Source: Flavobacterium sp. (GTDB lineage Bacteria > Bacteroidota > Bacteroidia > Flavobacteriales > Flavobacteriaceae). From it: 64,000 nucleotides of DNA. The notes beneath the pieces are model-generated. The model had not been told where the DNA came from, did no database searches, and worked only from the letters and a program-made list of their open reading frames with translations. Below are positions 14,666-52,100 of the stretch, piece by piece. The position numbers and the translations under genes were made by a program. Location: NCBI RefSeq assembly GCF_024642105.1, contig NZ_JAHEBT010000056.1, forward strand, positions 22,531 through 86,530, written 5' to 3'. How positions within the stretch are numbered: the stretch's first letter is position 1; the number at the start of each line of letters is the position of its first letter.

Positions 14666-14727
14666 TGTCATCCTGAACTTGTTTCAGGATCTCAATTTTC
14701 AGATTCTGAAACAAGTTCAGAATGACA
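14666..14727. repeat. TGTCA-tagged REP doublet (inverted pair of hairpin units)
   Basis: TGTCATCCTGAACTTGTTTCAGGATCT...AGATTCTGAAACAAGTTCAGAATGACA; siblings at 22243 and 24966. Confidence 0.85.
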
Positions 14728-14732
14728 AAAAA

Positions 14733-17681: not shown

Positions 17682-19025
17682 ATGGAAGAAAAAATAAATC
17701 AATTTATGGCTTTGGTAGAAGCCAAAAATCCAAACGAACCTGAATTCATTCAAGCCGTTAGAGAATTTGCTGAAACAGTAATTCCGTTTATCTCCGAACG
17801 AAAAAAATACGACGGAAAAAACATATTACTTCGTATTGCCGAGCCAGAGCGTTCTATCATTTTTAGAGTGCCGTGGGTGGATGATAAAGGAGAAATTATT
17901 GTAAATCGCGGATTTAGAATCCAAATGAACTCGGCTATTGGACCGTATAAAGGCGGAATTCGTTTTCATCATACCGTGAATTTATCGGTTTTGAAATTCT
18001 TGGCTTTCGAACAAGTATTCAAAAATAGTTTGACTACACTACCAATGGGTGGTGGAAAAGGAGGCTCTGATTTTGATCCAGAAGGAAAATCGGATGGTGA
18101 AATCATGCGTTTCTGTCAATCGTTTATGACGGAATTGTGCCGTCACATTGGACCAGATTTGGATGTTCCTGCGGGAGATATCGGAGTAGGAGCAAGAGAA
18201 ATTGGCTACTTATTTGGACAATACAAACGCATTCGCAATGAATTTACGGGAGTATTAACCGGAAAAGGATTGGCTTACGGAGGTTCATTAATTCGTCCAG
18301 AAGCAACAGGATACGGTGTAGTATATTTTACAGAGCAAATGTTGCGTACCATTGGTCAAGATATCAAAGGGAAAACCGTAGCGATTTCAGGTTTTGGAAA
18401 CGTGGCTTGGGGAGTCGCTTTGAAAGTGAATGAATTAGGTGGAAAAGTCGTGACCATTTCAGGTCCTGACGGGTATATTTATGATAAAGACGGAATTTCA
18501 GGTGAAAAAATCGACTTTATGTTGGAGTTAAGAGCGCGTGGCGATAACAAAGCCGAAGCCTATTTAGAGAAATATCCTAACGCCGAGTTCCACAAAGGCA
18601 AAAGCCCTTGGGAGGCTAAAGTAGATATCGCGATTCCATGTGCGACTCAAAATGAGTTGAACGAGCAAGATGCTAAAAATTTAATTGCTAACGGTGTGAT
18701 TTGTGTAACCGAAGCGGCGAATATGCCTTGTACTTTAGAAGCAATCAAATTGTTCCTAGAAAACAAAGTGCTTTTTGCTCCAGGTAAAGCCGCTAATGCG
18801 GGTGGAGTTGCTGCTTCTGGTTTAGAAATGACGCAAAATTCCATTCGTTTGAACTGGACGAGCGAGGAAGTAGATGCGCGATTAAAAGACATTATGGTGG
18901 GGATTCACAATCAATGTAAAAAATATGGTGCAGAAGAAGATGGGTATGTTAACTATGTAAAAGGAGCCAATATCGCTGGATTTGTGAAAGTAGCTGATGC
19001 AATGCTTGCACAAGGGGTGGTATAA
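17682..19025 (+). CDS. gdhA: NADP-specific glutamate dehydrogenase
   Basis: GPYKGGIRFH, LPMGGGKGGSDFDP, DVPAGDIGVG, RPEATGYG, GFGNV, APGKAANAGGV. Confidence 0.97.
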   Translation: MEEKINQFMALVEAKNPNEPEFIQAVREFAETVIPFISERKKYDGKNILLRIAEPERSIIFRVPWVDDKGEIIVNRGFRIQMNSAIGPYKGGIRFHHTVNLSVLKFLAFEQVFKNSLTTLPMGGGKGGSDFDPEGKSDGEIMRFCQSFMTELCRHIGPDLDVPAGDIGVGAREIGYLFGQYKRIRNEFTGVLTGKGLAYGGSLIRPEATGYGVVYFTEQMLRTIGQDIKGKTVAISGFGNVAWGVALKVNELGGKVVTISGPDGYIYDKDGISGEKIDFMLELRARGDNKAEAYLEKYPNAEFHKGKSPWEAKVDIAIPCATQNELNEQDAKNLIANGVICVTEAANMPCTLEAIKLFLENKVLFAPGKAANAGGVAASGLEMTQNSIRLNWTSEEVDARLKDIMVGIHNQCKKYGAEEDGYVNYVKGANIAGFVKVADAMLAQGVV

Positions 19026-19044
19026 GACTATTAATTCAAATGCT

Positions 19045-19082
19045 AAAAAACCTTCTTTCGATTTTCGGGAGAAGGTTTTTTT
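19045..19082 (+). terminator. Intrinsic terminator of gdhA
   Basis: AAAAAACCTTCT...AGAAGGTTTTTT hairpin. Confidence 0.75.
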
Positions 19083-19173
19083 ATATGTAGTATATTTGTA
19101 CGTTAATAATCAAAACATTGATTTTTTAAATCCTAAATAGTAGCCTTTTTGATTTAGGTTAATTAAAATTGGA

Positions 19174-19239
19174 CCACGGATTTTACAGATTATACTGATT
19201 TTCACGGATAAAATCCGTTGAATCCGTTAAATCTGTGGC
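19174..19239. repeat. Gene-less element with the ends of the GxxExxY cassette (nonamer-periodic MITE)
   Basis: ACGGATTTTACAGATT (19176-19191) is identical to 44781-44796; the right arm matches 45213-45240 at 23 of 28 nt. Confidence 0.8.
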
Positions 19240-19294
19240 AAAAAACAGTTAATAAATGAGTTTGATTTTTCACCAAATAGTACTATTTCAATAA

Positions 19295-20008
19295 ATGCAA
19301 GTCAAAACCAAAGCGATTGTTATTTCGGCATTAAAATTTCAGGAAAAAAGCCTGATTGTAAAATGCTTTACCCTGACGCACGGTTTGAAATCGTATTTTG
19401 TTCGAGATGCTTTTTCGTCTCGAAAATCGAATCAAAAAATCGCCTATTTCCAGCCCTTGAGTATTTTAGAAATTGAAGCGGTGCATAAGAATAAAGGTAC
19501 TTTGGAAAATTTTAAAGAAATTAAAATTGCCACGCCTTTTCATTCGATTCATACCGACATTGTTAAAAGCACCATTGTGTTGTTCTTGTCGGAGATTTTG
19601 CACCATTCCATACACGAAGAAGAAAAAAACGAAGCGCTTTTTACGTTTATAGAAGCGGCGTTGCAGTGGCTCGATAATCACAATGAAACGGCTAACTTTC
19701 ATTTGATTTTATTACTCGAAATGACCAAATATTTTGGTTTTTACCCTGATGTAACTGACAGGGATCAGGCTTTTTTCGAATTGGTAGAAGGTGTTTTTTC
19801 TCCTTTTCATGCCGTGAGTTCGTTGACGGAACACGAAACCCTTTTGTTTAAAAAACTGATTGACTTAAAATGGGATTCGGATCAAAAGATTTTTCATGTT
19901 ATTGAAAGACAAATTCTCTTGAAAATCCTAATGGATTACTACAGCTATCACTTGGACGGCTTTAGAAAACCCAAATCCTTGGACGTATTGAAGGAGGTTT
20001 TTGCATAA
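19295..20008 (+). CDS. recO: DNA repair protein RecO
   Basis: N-terminal OB-fold (KAIVIS...EKSLIVKCFT..GLKSY..FQPLSIL) and a helical C-terminal domain. Confidence 0.9.
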   Translation: MQVKTKAIVISALKFQEKSLIVKCFTLTHGLKSYFVRDAFSSRKSNQKIAYFQPLSILEIEAVHKNKGTLENFKEIKIATPFHSIHTDIVKSTIVLFLSEILHHSIHEEEKNEALFTFIEAALQWLDNHNETANFHLILLLEMTKYFGFYPDVTDRDQAFFELVEGVFSPFHAVSSLTEHETLLFKKLIDLKWDSDQKIFHVIERQILLKILMDYYSYHLDGFRKPKSLDVLKEVFA

Positions 20009-20040
20009 CGTCATTGCGAGGAGGAACGACGAAGCAATCT
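20009..20040. repeat. CGTC-tagged REP-like element
   Basis: CGTCATTGCGAGGAGGAACGACGAAGCAATCT starts at the first base after the recO stop. Confidence 0.75.
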
Positions 20041-20182
20041 AACACAGATTTCACGAATTTCTCAGATTGGTTGAGTACTTCTTATTAAAAGTACCCACAC
20101 GGAAGGATTTGTGTGAAAGTGACTGTTTTTCAATTCTCTTAAATTTTAATGATCTGTGGTAATCTGTGCAATCTGTGTTAGA
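20038..20182. repeat. Nonamer-periodic MITE-like element with 13-bp perfect terminal inverted repeats
   Basis: TCTAACACAGATT (20038-20050) and AATCTGTGTTAGA (20170-20182); arms built of ACAGATT-like 9-nt units. Confidence 0.75.
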
Positions 20183-20238
20183 ATTTAGTATTTAATTTCC
20201 CTTTAAAAATCACACATTAATCAGTATCAATAACTTTT

Positions 20239-20264
20239 AGCTATTGCCTTTTGCCTTTTGCCTA
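20239..20264. repeat. TTGCCT(A/T) heptamer half-element
   Basis: CTATTGCCTTTTGCCTTTTGCCTA; same family as 13959-14026. Confidence 0.55.
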
Positions 20265-20272
20265 TAAATCAT

Positions 20273-20280
20273 TACTTTCG
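20273..20280 (+). promoter_or_regulatory. -7 promoter element of ileS (TAnnTTCG variant)
   Basis: TACTTTCG about 25 nt upstream of ATG 20305. Confidence 0.5.
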
Positions 20281-20304
20281 CAACTCGATTTAGAAAAGCA
20301 TACC

Positions 20305-23300
20305 ATGAGCACAAAATTTACTGAATACAAAGGACTTGACTTGCCAAAATCGGCAGAAGAAGTGCTGGATTTTTGGAAGAAAGAAACGATATTTGAGAAA
20401 ACGGTAACTACCCGTGAGGGGAATCCGCCGTACGTGTTTTTTGAGGGGCCGCCTTCGGCAAATGGCTTGCCAGGAATTCACCACGTGATGGCACGTGCTA
20501 TTAAAGATATTTTTTGTCGCTATAAAACTCAAAAAGGGTTCCAAGTAAAGCGTAAAGCAGGTTGGGATACCCACGGTTTGCCGGTTGAATTAGGTACCGA
20601 AAAAGAATTGGGAATTACCAAAGAAGACATTGGTAAAACCATCACCGTAGAAGAATACAACGAGGCGTGCAAACGCACCGTGATGCGCTATACTGACGTT
20701 TGGAACGATCTAACGGAGAAAATGGGGTATTGGGTAGATATGGAAGATCCGTATGTGACGTACAAACCTAAATATATGGAAACCGTGTGGTGGTTGTTGA
20801 AACAAATCTACAACAAGGATTTGATGTACAAAGGGTACACCATTCAGCCGTACTCGCCAAAAGCAGGGACAGGATTGTCTTCGCACGAGGTGAATCAACC
20901 AGGTTCGTACCGCGATGTAACGGACACTACCATTGTAGCACAGTTCAGAAGCCCCCTAACCCCCGAAGGGGGAATTGGTAGCAATTCAATTTTAAAAGCA
21001 TTTGGTCTTAGCTCCCCTCCTTTGGAGGGGCTGGGGGAGGCTTTTTTCTTGGCTTGGACGACAACACCTTGGACTTTGCCATCGAATACCGCTTTGACTG
21101 TAGGTTCAAAAATTGATTATGTGTTGGTGAAAACCTTCAATCAATATACGTTCTTACCAACGAATGTCATTTTGGCTAAAAACTTGGTGGGAAAACAATT
21201 TGGCAAAACGTTTTTCGAATCGGCAGAAGCTGCTGATTTTGAAAATTTCAAAGCAGGAGATAAGAAAATTCCATTTCAAATTTTGGCGGAAGCCAAAGGA
21301 GCGGACTTGGTTGGAATTCGTTACGAGCAATTGATGCCGTTGGCTTTGCCGTATCAAAATGCTGAAGATGCGTTCCGTGTGATTGCAGGAGATTTCGTTA
21401 CTACCGAAGACGGAACAGGAATTGTACATACCGCGCCTACTTTTGGTGCAGATGATGCTAAAGTGGCGGCAGCAGCTACTCCCGAAGTGCCGCCAATGTT
21501 GGTTTTGGACGAAAATGGTACGCCAGTTCCTTTGGTGGATTTACAAGGTAAATTTGTAAATGGACTAGGTGATTTATCAGGTAAATACGTTAAAAACGAA
21601 TACTATAACGAGGGTGAAGCACCAGAGCGTTCTGCCGATGTAGAAATTGCGATTCAGTTAAAAGAAGAAAATAAGGCGTTCAAAGTGGAAAAATACGTCC
21701 ACAGTTACCCACATTGTTGGAGAACGGATAAGCCTATTTTATATTACCCATTGGATTCTTGGTTCATCAAGATTACCGAAGTGCGTGACCGTATGTTTGA
21801 CTTGAACGATTCCATCAACTGGAAGCCAAAAGCTACAGGTGAAGGTCGTTTTGGAAACTGGTTGAAAAACGCTAACGATTGGAATTTATCGCGTTCTAGA
21901 TATTGGGGAATTCCGTTGCCAATTTGGAGAACCGAAGACAAACAAGAAGAAATCTTGATTGGTTCGGTTGAAGAATTGTACCACGAAATTGAAAAATCAA
22001 TTCAGGCGGGTTGTCAAAAAACAAATCCGTTTGCTGGTTTCGAAATTGGAAACATGTCGGAAGCGAATTATGATTTGATTGATTTGCACAAAAATGTAGT
22101 GGACGAAATCACTTTGGTTTCTGCTTCAGGAAAACCAATGCAACGCGAAAGCGATTTGATTGACGTTTGGTTTGATTCAGGCGCAATGCCTTATGCACAA
22201 TGGCATTACCCATTTGAAAATAAAGAACTTATAGATGGCGTTTGTCATTCCGAACTTGTTTCGGAATCTAAAGAGGAGAACCTGAAACAAGTTCAGGTTG
22301 ACAAGCGTATGTTTCCAGCTGATTTTATTGCTGAAGGAGTCGATCAAACCCGTGGTTGGTTTTATACTTTGCACGCTATTGGAACTTTGGTTTTTGACAA
22401 AATCGCGTATAAAAATGTGGTTTCTAACGGATTGGTATTGGACAAAAACGGACAGAAAATGTCGAAACGTTTAGGAAATGCCGTTGATCCTTTTGAAACT
22501 TTGAAAGAATATGGTCCAGATGCGACGCGTTGGTACATGATATCCAATGCGAATCCTTGGGATAATTTAAAGTTTGACTTGGAAGGAATTGCTGAGGTGC
22601 GTCGTAAGTTCTTCGGGACCTTATACAACACCTATTCGTTCTTTAGTTTGTATGCCAATATCGATGGTTTTACCTATTCAGAAGCTGAGATTCCGTTGGC
22701 AGAACGCCCAGAAATTGACCGTTGGATTATATCAGAATTGAATACGTTGATTAAAGATGTCGATGGTTTTTATGCTGATTATGAACCAACCAGAGCGGCT
22801 CGTGCGATTTCTGATTTTGTTCAGGAAAACTTGAGTAACTGGTACGTTCGTTTGTGCAGAAGACGTTTTTGGAAAGGGGAGTATGCGCAAGATAAAATCG
22901 CTGCTTACCAAACCTTATACACTTGTTTGTTAAGTATAAGTAAATTGGCTGCACCAATTGCGCCATTTTATATGGATAAATTATACAGAGACTTAACACA
23001 AGCGACACATTCAGAAGGTTTTGAGAGTGTACATTTGGCAAAATTTCCAGAATACGTTGAAAACTTTGTTGATAAATCGTTGGAAAGCAAAATGCAAAAA
23101 GCCCAAACGATTTCATCATTGGTATTGTCGCTTCGTAAAAAAGAGATGATTAAAGTGCGTCAACCTTTGCAAAAGGTAATGATTCCGGTACTTGACAACA
23201 ATCAAAGAGCTGAAATCGAAGCAGTATCAGACTTGATAAAAGCGGAAGTAAACGTAAAAGAAATTGTGCTTTTAGACGATGCTTCGGGGATTTTGGTCAA

Positions 23301-23814
23301 ACAAATTAAACCTAATTTCAAGACATTAGGACCTCGTTTTGGAAAAGACATGGGCTTGATTTCTAAGGAGATACAAGGATTTTCGCCAGATCAAATCAAT
23401 GAATTGGAACGCGAAGGAAGTTTAGCTATTGTTATTGCGGGAAATACCGTATCTTTAACTATAGAAGATGTAGAAATTACATCGCAGGATATTGAAGGTT
23501 GGTTAGTGGCTAATTCTAACGGAATTACAGTAGCGTTAGACATTACCATTTCGGCAGAATTGAAACAAGAAGGGATTGCGAGAGAATTGGTCAACCGAAT
23601 TCAAAATATCCGTAAAGATTCAGGGTTTGAAGTAACAGATAAAATTAAAGTGACGTTACAACACAATGCCGAATTACAAGCAGCCGTAGTGGCTAATGAA
23701 GAGTACATCAAGTCAGAAACCTTAACCGAAAGTTTGGTTTTTGAAAATGAAGTAGCTAACGGATTAGAAATAGAATTTGACGATATAAAAACAAGAATAA
23801 TAATCACTAAATAA
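20305..23814 (+). CDS. ileS: Isoleucine--tRNA ligase, type 2, with two in-frame repeat-derived inserts
   Basis: FFEGPPSANGLPGIHH, GWDTHGLPVE, AWTTTPWTLPSN, DWNLSRSRYWG, FIAEGVDQTRGW, KMSKR. Confidence 0.98.
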   Translation: MSTKFTEYKGLDLPKSAEEVLDFWKKETIFEKTVTTREGNPPYVFFEGPPSANGLPGIHHVMARAIKDIFCRYKTQKGFQVKRKAGWDTHGLPVELGTEKELGITKEDIGKTITVEEYNEACKRTVMRYTDVWNDLTEKMGYWVDMEDPYVTYKPKYMETVWWLLKQIYNKDLMYKGYTIQPYSPKAGTGLSSHEVNQPGSYRDVTDTTIVAQFRSPLTPEGGIGSNSILKAFGLSSPPLEGLGEAFFLAWTTTPWTLPSNTALTVGSKIDYVLVKTFNQYTFLPTNVILAKNLVGKQFGKTFFESAEAADFENFKAGDKKIPFQILAEAKGADLVGIRYEQLMPLALPYQNAEDAFRVIAGDFVTTEDGTGIVHTAPTFGADDAKVAAAATPEVPPMLVLDENGTPVPLVDLQGKFVNGLGDLSGKYVKNEYYNEGEAPERSADVEIAIQLKEENKAFKVEKYVHSYPHCWRTDKPILYYPLDSWFIKITEVRDRMFDLNDSINWKPKATGEGRFGNWLKNANDWNLSRSRYWGIPLPIWRTEDKQEEILIGSVEELYHEIEKSIQAGCQKTNPFAGFEIGNMSEANYDLIDLHKNVVDEITLVSASGKPMQRESDLIDVWFDSGAMPYAQWHYPFENKELIDGVCHSELVSESKEENLKQVQVDKRMFPADFIAEGVDQTRGWFYTLHAIGTLVFDKIAYKNVVSNGLVLDKNGQKMSKRLGNAVDPFETLKEYGPDATRWYMISNANPWDNLKFDLEGIAEVRRKFFGTLYNTYSFFSLYANIDGFTYSEAEIPLAERPEIDRWIISELNTLIKDVDGFYADYEPTRAARAISDFVQENLSNWYVRLCRRRFWKGEYAQDKIAAYQTLYTCLLSISKLAAPIAPFYMDKLYRDLTQATHSEGFESVHLAKFPEYVENFVDKSLESKMQKAQTISSLVLSLRKKEMIKVRQPLQKVMIPVLDNNQRAEIEAVSDLIKAEVNVKEIVLLDDASGILVKQIKPNFKTLGPRFGKDMGLISKEIQGFSPDQINELEREGSLAIVIAGNTVSLTIEDVEITSQDIEGWLVANSNGITVALDITISAELKQEGIARELVNRIQNIRKDSGFEVTDKIKVTLQHNAELQAAVVANEEYIKSETLTESLVFENEVANGLEIEFDDIKTRIIITK
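20950..21042. repeat. G/C-rich double-hairpin element inserted in-frame in ileS (31 codons)
   Basis: CCCCC-GAA-GGGGG and CCCCTCC-TTT-GGAGGGG hairpins in inverted arms; translates as SPLTPEGG...SPPLEGLGEA. Confidence 0.8.
22243..22303. repeat. TGTCA-tagged REP doublet inserted in-frame in ileS (20 codons)
   Basis: TGTCATTCCGAACTTGTTTCGGAATCT...AGAACCTGAAACAAGTTCAGGTTGACA; homologous to intergenic 14666-14727. Confidence 0.9.
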
Positions 23815-24921: not shown

Positions 24922-24965
24922 TTTGTGATACAGATATAAAAGGAGGCTACAAACAGGGTTATTCT

Positions 24966-25046
24966 TGTTAAACTGAACTTGTTTCAGTTTCTTTCGACTA
25001 CTTTTTGATAATTCATTATGGATTCCGAAATAAATTCGGAATGACA
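24966..25046. repeat. TGTCA-tagged REP doublet between convergent genes
   Basis: TGTTAAACTGAACTTGTTTCAGTTTCT...GGATTCCGAAATAAATTCGGAATGACA. Confidence 0.8.
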
Positions 25047-25088
25047 AAAATGCTGCTTTTTTAGCCCCCTCTTTAATTTTTGCTTATT

Positions 25089-25640: not shown

Positions 25641-25672
25641 AAATCGGTGGCAATTTGTGAAATCTGTGTTAG
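25641..25672. repeat. Right-arm remnant of the nonamer-periodic MITE family
   Basis: Ends in AATCTGTGTTAG, identical to 20170-20181. Confidence 0.5.
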
Positions 25673-43630: not shown

Positions 43631-44779
43631 ATGAAAAAATTACCTGTAACTCTTTCAGATAAATTAGCACTTCGGTTGCAAAACAACGCACTAAGGCAGT
43701 TGCCAAAAGCTTCTGGCTTGGTTGATTTTGCTTCGAATGATTATTTGGGTTTTTCCAATTCCAGTGTAATTTTTGAAGCTACACATCAGTATTTGTTAGA
43801 CCATAATCAGAAACAAAATGGCGCTACCGGTTCCCGACTGCTTTCGGGGAATCATACTGTTTATCATACTGCTGAAGACTATATTGCTCAATTTCACCAA
43901 GCACCAGCAGCCTTAATTTTCAATTCGGGATATGATGCGAATGTGGGATTTTTTAGTGCCGTTCCTCAAAAAGGAGATTTGATTTTGTACGATGAATTGT
44001 GTCATGCGTCCATTCGTGACGGAATCCAATTATCGAATGCAAAAGCCTATAAATTCCAACACAATGACTTGGAAGATTTAGAACGATTGTTAGTTCGACA
44101 TCCGGATACGACTATTTATATTGTTACCGAATCGGTTTTTTCAATGGATGGTGATACGCCTAATTTGGAAGAATTAGTCCAATTGGCTGAAAAACACAAA
44201 GCCTATGTAGTGGTTGATGAGGCACATGCTTTGGGAGTTTTAGGCGAAAAAGGAGAAGGGTTGGTGCAAAGTCTAAATTTACAAGAAACTGTTTTTGCTC
44301 GAATCATGACTTTTGGCAAAGGATTGGGTTGCCATGGAGCTGCCATTCTAGGAGGAGAGGATTTAAAAAGTTATTTGGTTAATTTTGCTCGGAGTTTTAT
44401 CTATACAACGGGTTTATCACCCCATTCGGTTGCGACTATTTTGACCGCTTACGAGCAGTTGGAGAAAGCAACGGATAGCCAACAACTATTAAAAAATAAC
44501 ATCGCTCATTTCAATCAAGAAAAGAATCGGTTGAGTTTAAAACCGTTGTTTGTTCGAAGTAAATCGGCTATTCAATCGGCTATAATTCCGGGGAATGAAA
44601 GAGTCAAAGGCATAGCACAACAACTGCAAAGTAAGGGGTTTGATGTGAAACCCATCTTGTCTCCTACTGTTCCAGAAGGGCAAGAACGCTTACGGTTTTG
44701 TTTGCACAGCTTCAATTCAGAACAAGAAATAACCGAAGTATTGCGATTGTTGAGTACTTTTGTTTTTAGCCACGGATAA
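43631..44779 (+). CDS. bioF: 8-amino-7-oxononanoate synthase
   Basis: FASNDYLG, GATGSRLLSG, DELCHASI, TESVFSMDGD, VDEAHA, TFGKGLG, RPILSPTV-like tail; last codons come from the inserted repeat. Confidence 0.93.
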   Translation: MKKLPVTLSDKLALRLQNNALRQLPKASGLVDFASNDYLGFSNSSVIFEATHQYLLDHNQKQNGATGSRLLSGNHTVYHTAEDYIAQFHQAPAALIFNSGYDANVGFFSAVPQKGDLILYDELCHASIRDGIQLSNAKAYKFQHNDLEDLERLLVRHPDTTIYIVTESVFSMDGDTPNLEELVQLAEKHKAYVVVDEAHALGVLGEKGEGLVQSLNLQETVFARIMTFGKGLGCHGAAILGGEDLKSYLVNFARSFIYTTGLSPHSVATILTAYEQLEKATDSQQLLKNNIAHFNQEKNRLSLKPLFVRSKSAIQSAIIPGNERVKGIAQQLQSKGFDVKPILSPTVPEGQERLRFCLHSFNSEQEITEVLRLLSTFVFSHG

Positions 44780-45243
44780 AACGGATTTTACAGATTTACA
44801 CGGATTATTATGACTACTTTATTACATAAAACAATTACCGATGCAGTCTTAAAAATATACTTTGATGTATATAATCAACTTGGATCTGGGTTTCTTGAAA
44901 AGGTGTACCAAAATGCAATGTATTTTGAATTAAAGAATAAAGGGTTTAAAGTAGAAGCTCAAAAACAAATTAAAGTATATTTTAGGAAACAACTTGTTGG
45001 GGAGTATTATGCCGATTTAATAGTTGAAGATAAGGTTATTGTTGAATTAAAAGCGACTGAATTACTTATGAATGTCCATGTGGCTCAAACATTGAATTAC
45101 TTAAAGGCGACAGAAATTGAAGTTGGGTTATTATTAAATTTTGGTGAAGAACCTGAATTCAAACGCATGATATATACAAACAACAGAAAAATTAATTTAA
45201 AAAATCAGTGATAATCCGTTTCATCCGTTTTATCCGTGGCTAA
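44766..45243. mobile_element. Putative minimal mobile cassette: GxxExxY gene between 41-bp inverted repeats
   Basis: TTAGCCACGGATAAAACGGAT (44766-44786) is the exact reverse complement of 45223-45243; the full arms match at 34 of 41 nt. Confidence 0.7.
44810..45211 (+). CDS. GxxExxY protein (PD-(D/E)XK-like nuclease fold)
   Basis: GFLEKVY motif (44888-44908), ADLIVEDKVIVELKA, GLLLNFG; 133 aa. Confidence 0.92.
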   Translation: MTTLLHKTITDAVLKIYFDVYNQLGSGFLEKVYQNAMYFELKNKGFKVEAQKQIKVYFRKQLVGEYYADLIVEDKVIVELKATELLMNVHVAQTLNYLKATEIEVGLLLNFGEEPEFKRMIYTNNRKINLKNQ

Positions 45244-49138: not shown

Positions 49139-52100
49139 ATGTTATACTTTACCCAAATTACACCTAAAAAAAGGGTGGCCTTTGTGCTATTCTTTTTTCT
49201 TTCTTGTTTTGGCTACAGCCAAGAAGTGCAACTCGACCCCCACTTTAATTCGTATGATGATGGACTTTTGGGCGATGGTTTTGACGGAACCGTGCGAACA
49301 TTGTCTCTTCAGACCGACGGAAAATTAATCGTAGGAGGTGAATTTCTAAATTACAATGGCAGCGCCACTCCGTATCTCTGTCGATTACAGACGGATGGTT
49401 CCAAAGATATTGGATTTAATTTAGGTACTTCTTTCAATAGTAAAATTTATACTTCGCTTATCCAGCCTGATGGCAAAATTATAGTGGCAGGAGCCTTTAC
49501 TACTTGTAATGGAATTCCAGTGGGGCGCTTGGTGCGGTTGAATGCAGACGGTTCGAGAGATACTACTTTCGACACTTCTATTGCGGCGAGTAGTGGTACT
49601 ATTTATGGATTGGCATTACAGGCTGATGGTAAATTACTCGTGGTAGGAAGTTTTACCAAATTCAATGGAATTACTGTAAACAGAATTGCAAGAGTTTTAC
49701 CTCATGGCGATTTGGATACTAGTTTCGTTACAGGGACAGGAACTACGAGTACAATTGACGATGTGGCGATTGCTCCTGATGGTAAAATAGTGCTTTCGGG
49801 AACGTTTAGTTCTTTTAACGGGAATGCTAATTATTCCAAATTAGTTCGGTTGCATTCAGATGGAAGCATTGATACCACTTTTTCTATAGGGACTGGTTTT
49901 GATGATGCTATTGAAGCTATTGCGATTCAGGCGGAGGGTAAAATTGTAGTAGGAGGTAGCTTTCTGAATTACAATGGAACGCCTCAAAATAGAATTGTTC
50001 GTTTGAATACGAATGGAACCGTCGATACCAGTTTTCTGTCTGGAACGGGTTTTAATAATGGAGCAGTTCATGCGATTCATAGTACTTCTGGCGGATTTCT
50101 GGTAGGCGGTAGTTTTAGCGGTACTTATAAGTCGACAGCTGTTAATCGTCTGGTTTTCTTAAATTCAAACGGAACACTGAATACCAATTTTGATATTGGC
50201 GCAGGCCCAGCCTCAGCAACTGTGTACACTTTAACTGAATCAATAGATAGCTTTTTTGTTGGAGGTTCTTTTTCTTTTTTTGATGATTTGAAACAGGGGA
50301 AGTTAGCTAAAATTAGTACCGTTGGCGAATTGGATTCAGGGTATTTAACCGCTGGAGTAGGATTTGATAAAGCAGTAGACAAAATAGTTCCTTTAGTAAA
50401 TGGAAGTTATATTGCTTTTGGAAGTTTTACTCAATTTAATGGAAAATCCATTAATCGAATTGTAAAACTGACGGCAAACGGTGAGCTGGACACTACTTTC
50501 AATCCCAATCAATCTGGATTTGATAGTACAGTCAAAGAAGTAGTGGTACTGCCAGACGGAAAACTTCTAGTAGCGGGAAATTTCACTAAATATAATGATA
50601 TTCCTGTCAAAAGAATGGTTCGTTTGGATCTGAATGGTGATATCGATACGTCTTTTAATGTTGGTTCTGGTTTTAATTATATGGTCTATACTTTGGCTTT
50701 GCAGCCTGACGGCAAAATTATTGTGGCGGGTAGTTTTACCACGTATAAAGGAGTAGCTGTTAAAAAAGTGATTCGGTTACAGCTAAACGGTGATTTGGAT
50801 ACTAGTTTTAACATTGGAACAAATCCTAATGCTACACCAAATCTATTATTGATTCAACCCGATGGAAAGGTTGTAGTGGGAGGAGATTTCGCTACTTTTA
50901 ATGGAGTTGGATCGAATAAATTAATTCGGTTAAATTCAAATGGTTCGGTTGATTCGAGTTTTTCTGTTGGGACAGGATTTGTAGGGACTATTTATACTAT
51001 GGCGTTACAAAATGACGGGAAAATTCTTGTGGGAGGTTCACTATCCAAATACAACGGACAAACGATTGGCAAAATAATACGACTTAATTCTAATGGAACC
51101 GCAGACGCAACGTTTAATTCAGGAACTGGTTTTAGTGGAGGAACAGTGCGTTCCATTGTTTTACAATCTAATGGAAGGATTTTAGTAGGCGGTTCTTTTT
51201 CGGGGAATTATAAGGGTACTTCTGTAAAAAGAATGGTGCGCTTATTGCCAGATGGGACTTATGACACTTCTTTTCCAGTCATTCTAAATGGGCAACTGAA
51301 TAGTATTTGTTTGGTTCAAGGTGGAGCGGTTATTGGAGGTAATTTCAATTCGGTTTCCGGAATTTCGAAGCATCGCATCGCGAAGTTGTTATTTTGTCAA
51401 GAAGGCACAATTTGGGACGGGAAAAATTGGAGCAATGGTTTGCCAACGAAGGATAAAACGGTTATTTTTAATAGCAATTATGAGATTTCGACTGATACTA
51501 AAATGTGTTCTTGTGTAGTCAATTCAGGAATAACAGTTACGGTTGCAACTGCAGCTACTTTAGAATTGGTGTCCAACTATTCCGGAAGCGGAAATTTAGT
51601 TTTTGAAAATAATGCTTCTTTATTTCAAACGGATGATTCCGTTGTAAATACAGGGGTTGTTCAGTTCAAGCGAAAAACCACACCGGTTCGTAAAACGGAT
51701 TATACCTATTGGTCCTCGCCAGTGGCAGGTCAACAATTGAAATTACTTTCTCCGAATTCGCCTTCTTCTACCTTTTATTCTTTTAATTCTCAGTTAAATC
51801 ATTGGAAAAATGAATCATACAATACAAATATGATTATAGGCAAAGGCTATATTTTTCAAGCGCCTCAAAGTTTTTCAGCAACGACTCCGGCAATTTTCGA
51901 AGCTGCTTTTTCTGGAATACCCAATAATGGTTTGGTTTCACTTCCTATAGCTCAAACGAAAACGCCCAATTTGATAGGAAATCCGTATCCTTCATCACTG
52001 AATGCCGATGCATTTATTCTAGAGAATCAGAATGTGCTACAGGGTAGCTTGTATTTTTGGACACACAATACCCCAATTGATAATGGCCAATATACCTCTG

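Follow-up and report, generated by a model that had tools for sequence, protein, structure and literature searches.

The 64,000-nt stretch of Flavobacterium sp. DNA analyzed here (the window) carries a short repeat, designated element A (CCACGGATTTTACAGATTATACTGATTTTCACGGATAAAATCCGTTGAATCCGTTAAATCTGTGGC, positions 19174-19239), in the spacer between gdhA (stop at 19025) and recO (ATG at 19295, 55 nt beyond the element). We confirmed the gene calls of gdhA, recO, and ileS. A preliminary description of this locus had recorded a gene-less element of 66 bp that comprised two arms and was placed after the gdhA terminator, and both observations were borne out, in that the terminator hairpin precedes element A and the element is an inverted repeat without a gene. 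The ends given there hold for the core, but the repeat extends a few bases further on each side, with the full unit at about 19169-19247. Specifically, the outer motif of the family starts at 19169 (TTGGACCAC), and homology to other copies reaches 19244-19247. The arms are inverted arrays of at least three tandem [C/A]AC[G/A/T]GAT-n-n units at a spacing of 9 (8-10) nt, four on the left (ACGGATTTT, ACAGATTAT, ACTGATTTT, and CACGGATAA) and three on the right, and the outer end of the family, T[A/G]G-[A][A/C]-CAC, is seen as TTGGACCAC at the left end and, in the complement, as TTTTGCCAC at the right end, as judged by eye against the logo. Both strands of element A fold as a single long, imperfect hairpin (-22.8 and -23.0 kcal/mol, z of about -4.3), a stability equaled in 0 of 200 shuffles, and no T-run follows the stem.

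Similarity to a gene-bearing cassette 25 kb away (cassette C, between bioF and bioD) had also been claimed, and the figures stand. The 16-mer ACGGATTTTACAGATT in the left arm of element A is identical at 16/16 positions to 44781-44796 in the left arm of the cassette and occurs exactly twice in the window (19176 and 44781), while 19212-19239 and 45213-45240, in the right arms, agree at 23 of 28 nt. What is shared, however, is a tandem 9-nt unit and not a unique sequence. With up to three mismatches allowed, the window held 10 matches to the 16-mer, against 1.33 expected, so the arm matches are better than background; a count of 10 was reached in 0 of 100 shuffles.

Table 1. Coordinates of the repeat elements and associated features in the window.
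Feature	Position	Strand	Sequence or basis
gdhA intrinsic-terminator hairpin	19046-19080	+	-18.6 kcal/mol, z -5.2; kept in L001-L007; common to both alleles
Strain-variable segment containing element A	19084-19286		blastn breakpoints in L095 and L100; alignments; metagenome contigs
Candidate -7 promoter box	19091-19098	+	TATATTTG; read from sequence; kept in both alleles, just past terminator
Element A, full repeat	19169-19247		outer motif TTGGA, then hairpin, then CAAAAAAC
Element A, left arm	19174-19209	+	four units, CCACGGATT, TTACAGATT, ATACTGATT, TTCACGGAT; period-9 CNGATT chain
AAA loop	19210-19212		center of palindrome ACGGAT-AAA-ATCCGT; sequence and fold
Element A, right arm	19213-19239	-	three inverted units, ATCCGTTGA, ATCCGTTAA, ATCTGTGG
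Element B, gene-less, sister subfamily	20039-20181		units CACAGATT/CACGAATT; ends CTAACAC...GTGTTAG; recO-ileS spacer
Solo arm D, subfamily of element B	25643-25672	-	CTAACACAGATTTCACAAATTGCCACCGAT on minus strand
Cassette C, left arm	44766-44809	+	TTAG-CCACGGATAAAACGGATTTTACAGATTTACACGGATT; bioF stop codon inside
GxxExxY ORF, 133 aa, PD-(D/E)XK nuclease superfamily	44810-45211	+	TIGR04256 9e-39; PF13366 2e-40
Cassette C, right arm	45203-45243	-	overlaps ORF stop; probable bioD ATG (45245) directly next

A strain-variable spacer upstream of recO

Within one freshwater Flavobacterium species, element A makes the region upstream of recO differ from strain to strain. In the seven closest genomes (L001-L007), whose RecO is 94-97% identical to that of the window, the gdhA-recO spacer measures about 106 nt, against 269 nt in the window, and element A is absent from all seven. 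It is also missing from two metagenome contigs with a RecO identical to that of the window (L095 and L100), which have the short spacer, versus eight such contigs that have the long one. The DNA on either side of the spacer is 96-99% identical between long- and short-allele contigs, and the variable segment comprises 203 nt in the long allele, with about 40 nt in its place in the short. Additionally, contigs from other runs lack the sequence between 19081-19084 and 19289-19295 and have some 40 letters in its place, and contigs from RNA-labelled runs carry the short allele. Because the short form matches the outgroups, we consider the long allele derived. The absence of element A from L001-L007 and from some conspecific strains contradicts the alternative of a conserved recO leader, and recO shows no sign of needing the element.

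The polymorphism did not take the form of a clean insertion of element A but of a replacement, 203 nt long, that covers the whole spacer and shows no target-site duplication. No clean filled and empty pair was found at gdhA-recO, where the alleles differ over the entire spacer and global alignments scatter; the long allele could thus have been acquired from another lineage by recombination. As for the origin of the segment, its parts to either side of the element (19084-19173 and 19240-19294) had no match among the other sequences retrieved. No direct repeat abuts the ends of element A or of its paralog L500 (see below), and element A, unlike L500, is flanked on each side by the sequence GTTAAT at a distance of 10-11 nt. 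Just past the terminator, the candidate promoter box matches TAnnTTTG, which we take to be the Bacteroidetes -7 consensus, and if it is used as the recO -7 element, element A probably lies in the recO 5′ leader.

Dispersed copies and the 9-nt-unit family

Comparison of element A alone with four metagenomes holding the species recovered further contigs that match it over 37-71 nt and have similar depth (82, 85, and 97, against 90, in one run). Homology to element A ends at 19174 (in the longest match) and, on the right, at 19244-19246, and gives way to unlike flanks, none of which is present in the window. One locus, L500, contains a second gene-less copy that is identical to element A at 66 of 77 positions (86%), aligned through GTGGCAAAAAAC, and folds at -22.3 kcal/mol. 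It is located between two unrelated genes in an orientation opposite to that of its neighbors; the likeness of its left flank to that of element A is marginal (p of about 0.03), and that of the right flank nil. On another contig, what looks like the 3′ terminus of a further GxxExxY cassette has a right arm nearer to element A (3-5 differences in 36-37 nt) than that of cassette C. We infer, from similar depth and shared samples only, that L500 and the additional contigs come from the genome of the window. Element A belongs to the 9-nt-unit family, is present or absent among conspecific strains, and has at least one paralog elsewhere, and the copies at other loci fit a dispersed MITE- or REPIN-like repeat. 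A small stem-loop was also seen just to the left of element A (19130-19158) and of its paralog (about 2940-2966 of L500, minus strand); the stems differ (CCTAAAT/ATTTAGG versus AAAGTT/AACTTT), and the GCCTTTT loop is common to both.

Across the family, an arm is a tandem array of 3-5 copies of the 9-nt unit [C/A]AC[G/A/T]GAT-n-n, and two arms face each other. The logo built from loci that were selected by protein (see below) gave [C/A]AC[G/A/T]GAT[T/n][A/n] for the unit and T[A/G]G[A][A/C]CAC for the outer motif. Searching a genome-contig collection with the pattern CCACNGATNNNACNGATNNNACNGAT returned at least 120 matches, a minority of which are unrelated coding repeats (e.g., L113, L165, L171, and L209). 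The matches listed came from Planctomycetota, Verrucomicrobiota, Acidobacteriota, Chloroflexota, Bacteroidota, Leptospirales (L115, L152, and L159), Cyanobacteria, and others, and ranged from 31 to 73% G+C. Among the pattern matches listed, 55 of 135 arms had an inverted partner within 2.5 kb (at least 19 of 26 positions matching), against about 0.1 expected by our own estimate, and the inner lengths of paired arms were mostly 0-190 nt, so these pairs are gene-less. The family thus spans many phyla, and the majority of its copies have no gene. The 45 ORFs beside the pattern-selected arms belong to unrelated families, with no enrichment of any neighboring gene and no transposase. The arm pattern was also present in IMG/VR contigs, mixed with unrelated coding tandem repeats. 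In one of the Leptospirales genomes (L152, 3852-4295), three hairpins lie at a spacing of about 159 nt.

Chance resemblance, or low-complexity A+T-rich sequence, deserved attention in a genome of 36% G+C, in which loose scans for the unit were noisy (25 arrays, against 13 in simulations), but its probability is practically nil. No shuffle matched the 16-mer count or the fold energy, inverted partner arms occurred far above expectation, and paralogous copies were found; the match count, the fold, the partner arms, and the L500 copy together rule it out.

The family is absent from Rfam and from the literature searched. At the gathering score, Rfam models matched only a single tRNA in the whole window; a permissive search (E up to 10) of 18900-20400 gave nothing relevant, and 18 hairpin-carrying loci gave no match. 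No description of these arms was found in publications on GxxExxY/PDDEXK_3, intervening-sequence proteins, or Flavobacterium MITEs.

GxxExxY genes, family arms, and a candidate partnership

The termini of cassette C (44766-45243) form a 21-nt perfect terminal inverted repeat (TTAGCCACGGATAAAACGGAT). The product of its ORF passes curated cut-offs (132 bits for TIGR04256, with a cut-off of 35, and 138 bits for PF13366) and retains an intact catalytic set, with E30, D69, E79-x-K81, and Q93 invariant in 66 relatives. In every contig examined that encodes the identical protein, its gene lies between bioF and bioD, and this site is kept across many Flavobacterium species at protein identities of 71-86%. 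Recent mobility of the cassette was consequently not borne out by the same-site distribution; judging from these sequence comparisons, the cassette is old and vertically inherited. In relatives it decays in place, with the ORF lost and the right arm kept (L302) or about two left units remaining (L304-L306). The bioF-bioD junctions of seven other relatives (L301, L309, L318, L327, L329, L331, and L334) hold other 9-10-nt arrays, of the CACAAAG, CTTTGTG, and CTTTGCG types, some of which form hairpins; CAC-led periodic repeats may thus make up a wider superfamily with a preference for this junction.

Compensating changes keep the arms of orthologous cassettes complementary. Across 14 orthologous bioF-bioD cassettes, 83% of cells were paired, against 35-40% when the partner was slid, 12 of 28 pairs had changed on both sides, and the covariation score of 0.186 (0.094 in shuffles) was reached in 0 of 500 shuffles. 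Mismatches of the G-T and A-C types were equally frequent (13 and 10), which indicates that neither strand is favored.

Maintained arm complementarity raises the prospect that the hairpin works in cis through its RNA or DNA structure, be it as an RNase III site, a REP/BIME-like stabilizer or insulator, or a recO leader, with the link to GxxExxY genes secondary. The fold is stable on both strands, elements A to D and the L500 copy are each bounded by two genes of the same orientation, element A is downstream of the retained TATATTTG box, and RNase III cleaves intervening sequences that have stem termini and carry small ORFs (PMC4990558). We nevertheless regard a host function as unlikely, in that conspecific strains and all close species lack element A, the sequence and not only the pairing is conserved across 31-73% G+C, the mismatch types show no favored strand, L500 is oriented against its neighbors, and the stem has neither a T-run after it nor a matching Rfam family.

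Descent of element A from the cassette 25 kb away, the origin put forward in the preliminary description, fared worse. It would require ORF loss at bioF-bioD followed by a move to gdhA-recO, and both the 16/16 and 23/28 identities and the ORF loss that leaves arms at this site in relatives (L302 and L304-L306) are compatible with it. However, among 410 arms from all loci, the left arm of cassette C tied for only 8th place and its right arm ranked 36th in similarity to element A, behind arms from Chloroflexota, Ignavibacteria, and others, so the resemblance is at the level of the family. Moreover, the order of units differs between the two elements, the remnants that decay in place are ragged and not clean palindromes, and the right arm of the additional cassette-like contig is closer to element A. 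Such descent is very unlikely, and the least likely of the three rivals that remain, namely this one, the host function above, and the homing site considered below.

To evaluate the association from the side of the protein, 70 relatives of the GxxExxY protein were chosen by protein alone and their flanks inspected afterwards. An array of at least three units was present within 110 nt in 42 of the 70 loci, and on both sides in 20, against a background of five such arrays in 518 kb of recO loci, and many of the remaining GxxExxY loci had visibly degenerate arms. GxxExxY genes are thus strongly associated with family arms. In the reverse direction, an HMM of Bacteroidota-type proteins detected GxxExxY in only one of 120 pattern-selected loci (819 kb), specifically the truncated gene that lies between family arms in L168, from another phylum, and this counts against the nuclease as partner of the repeats. 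Some GxxExxY genes are located between two complete hairpins (L258, L266, and L281), and gene-less hairpins occur there in tandem. In L281, units of 96 nt (7.8 copies, 737-1479) and 90 nt (5 copies, 1869-2329) surround the gene, and in L269 four tandem 156-nt units (880-1470) precede it; copies are near-identical within each array.

These arrangements also bear on a homing-site model, in which gene-less hairpins are empty targets of GxxExxY, a homing-type endonuclease that cleaves the palindrome and whose gene is copied into the middle during repair, making element A a target and not a derivative. In keeping with such a model, the ORF fills precisely the interval between the innermost units, its start and stop codons touching or overlapping the arms, gene-less palindromes have clean short loops without ORF remnants, and the unit is conserved across phyla, as expected of a recognition site. 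Yet the bioF-bioD cassette has remained at one site through genus-level divergence, decaying in place without turnover, the genes of L258, L266, and L281 stand between hairpins and not within one, homology provided by the arms is limited to about 30-40 nt, and the spread of the gene-less hairpins themselves is left unexplained. We therefore consider homing rather unlikely.

To our knowledge, GxxExxY/PF13366 is a very large protein family without known function; we know of no transposase activity for GxxExxY, a nuclease-fold protein, and of no activity of any such protein on these repeats. At least 7,952 homologs had E values of 1e-10 or below among 8,000 candidates scored. No relative of the nuclease was found in the PDB by sequence, no match in PHROGs, and no relative of the cassette protein in IMG/VR; PADLOC gave a weak match to a nuclease domain only (E = 0.008), and an AlphaFold model, from a shallow alignment, had a pLDDT of 51.

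On balance, element A is probably a gene-less, non-autonomous member of a dispersed family of hairpin repeats, REPIN- or MITE-like in character, with the GxxExxY nuclease as its likely partner. Under this reading, the nuclease would recognize the unit arrays, or the hairpin or cruciform that they form, and may spread or maintain gene-less copies in trans, as RAYT transposases do for REPINs; element A would have arrived at gdhA-recO within the 203-nt spacer replacement, and its own mobilization could likewise have occurred in trans. A broader proposal is possible but tentative: that hairpins of the 9-nt unit are DNA or RNA substrates of GxxExxY nucleases in a pan-bacterial and apparently undescribed REPIN-RAYT-like system, extending over at least seven phyla, whose copies are spread or maintained in trans.

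Among the closest known systems is REPIN-RAYT, which is said to combine REP doublets, as hairpins, with REP-associated tyrosine transposases, in work attributed to Nunvar in 2010, Bertels and Rainey in 2011, and Ton-Hoang in 2012. We draw the analogy because the enzyme gene is repeat-flanked, single-locus, and vertically inherited, while gene-less doublets are scattered, diverged, and strain-variable. In both systems, short inverted doublets without genes, of which element A with its hairpin is one, lie across intergenic DNA, the enzyme gene is a vertically inherited, single-locus gene bordered by these repeats, doublets differ from strain to strain, copies in one genome are several substitutions apart, and the outer end bears a short conserved tag. 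They differ in that the candidate partner here is a PD-(D/E)XK nuclease (PF13366/TIGR04256), and no repeat-flanked HUH/Y1 transposase gene, the enzyme of REPIN-RAYT, was found. Furthermore, the arms here are direct 9-nt arrays with a T[A/G]G tag, unlike REPs, each of which is an imperfect palindrome of 20-40 nt with a GTAG/CGTC tag, and the core of the unit is nearly constant across phyla, in contrast to the lineage-specific REPs (for background on REPs, see PMC3733652).

Bacterial MITEs resemble element A in being small, intergenic, and devoid of an ORF, with terminal inverted repeats, several dispersed copies (here the contigs with different flanks and L500, presumably of the same genome), and presence or absence among strains. 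In contrast to MITEs, element A has no target-site duplication, its arms are periodic arrays, its polymorphic site is not a clean insertion, and no autonomous IS with a known transposase was found to share its ends, the GxxExxY gene being the sole gene found to do so. The intervening sequences of 23S rRNA in Leptospira and Coxiella (PMC4990558) have complementary termini that form a long stem around a small ORF and a sporadic, apparently horizontal distribution, and the arm pattern described here also occurs in Leptospirales. Those sequences occupy helix 25 or 45, are excised by RNase III, and encode the four-helix-bundle protein S23p, whereas the present elements are outside rRNA (element A lies between protein-coding genes, and Rfam detected no rRNA in the window), their ORF is GxxExxY, and most copies are ORF-less. 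Integron cassettes with attC sites share imperfect palindromes that border small promoter-less genes, and some loci here read hairpin-gene-hairpin; unlike in integrons, however, the gene has symmetric arms to its left and right, the R/L box arrangement of attC was not recognized, and hairpins are scattered singly and not gathered in one array.

A link between GxxExxY and the repeats would provide a testable substrate for the enzyme, in the form of a defined and easily recognized DNA repeat, and would account for a common source both of spurious small ORFs and of spacer variability in Bacteroidota, Planctomycetota, Verrucomicrobiota, Acidobacteriota, and Chloroflexota genomes. Should the nuclease prove to move or maintain the hairpins, the pair would constitute a second, mechanistically different enzyme-plus-repeat partnership of the long-lived REPIN-RAYT type.

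A sister subfamily and further repeats in the window

The window also contains a sister subfamily, represented by element B, which folds at -43 kcal/mol (z -4.8), and by solo arm D. In L001, arms homologous to those of element B enclose a hydrolase cargo of 1.2 kb, and in L007 a short core without a gene; L002-L006 lack such arms. The L001 cargo is a secreted alpha/beta-hydrolase of 350 aa (DLH-like) that is unrelated to GxxExxY, and this too counts against the nuclease as partner. Exactly at 20040/20041, metagenome contigs split into four or more different sequences.

Several minor observations concern other repeats. At the strain level, the recO-ileS spacer (20008-20251 in the window, 1080-2390 in L001, and also in L007) is a hot spot. 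Adjoining the left arm of element B on its outer side, at 20009-20039 and right after the recO stop, is a third short repeat, CGTCATTGCGAGGAGGAACGACGAAGCAATC, which occurs at the equivalent place in L001 (1049-1079). Within ileS (20251-23814), positions 22240-22308 are occupied by an in-frame palindromic insert that belongs to another repeat family (TGTCATTCCGAACTTGTTTCGGAATC/GAACCTGAAACAAGTTCAGGTTGACA), such that the product reads ELID-GVCHSELVSESKEENLKQVQVDKRM-FPADF in the window, versus ELID-QNKS-FPADF in L002; Rickettsia palindromic elements likewise insert in frame into coding genes. Intergenic copies of this ileS-type family, near-perfect palindromes of about 30+30 nt, are present at 14666-14731 and 24962-25050. 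Finally, a large ORF contains, at 49308-51057, a series of coding repeats of about 153 nt, with a consensus like QPDGKIIVGGxF..YNG, and probably encodes a repeat-domain surface protein.
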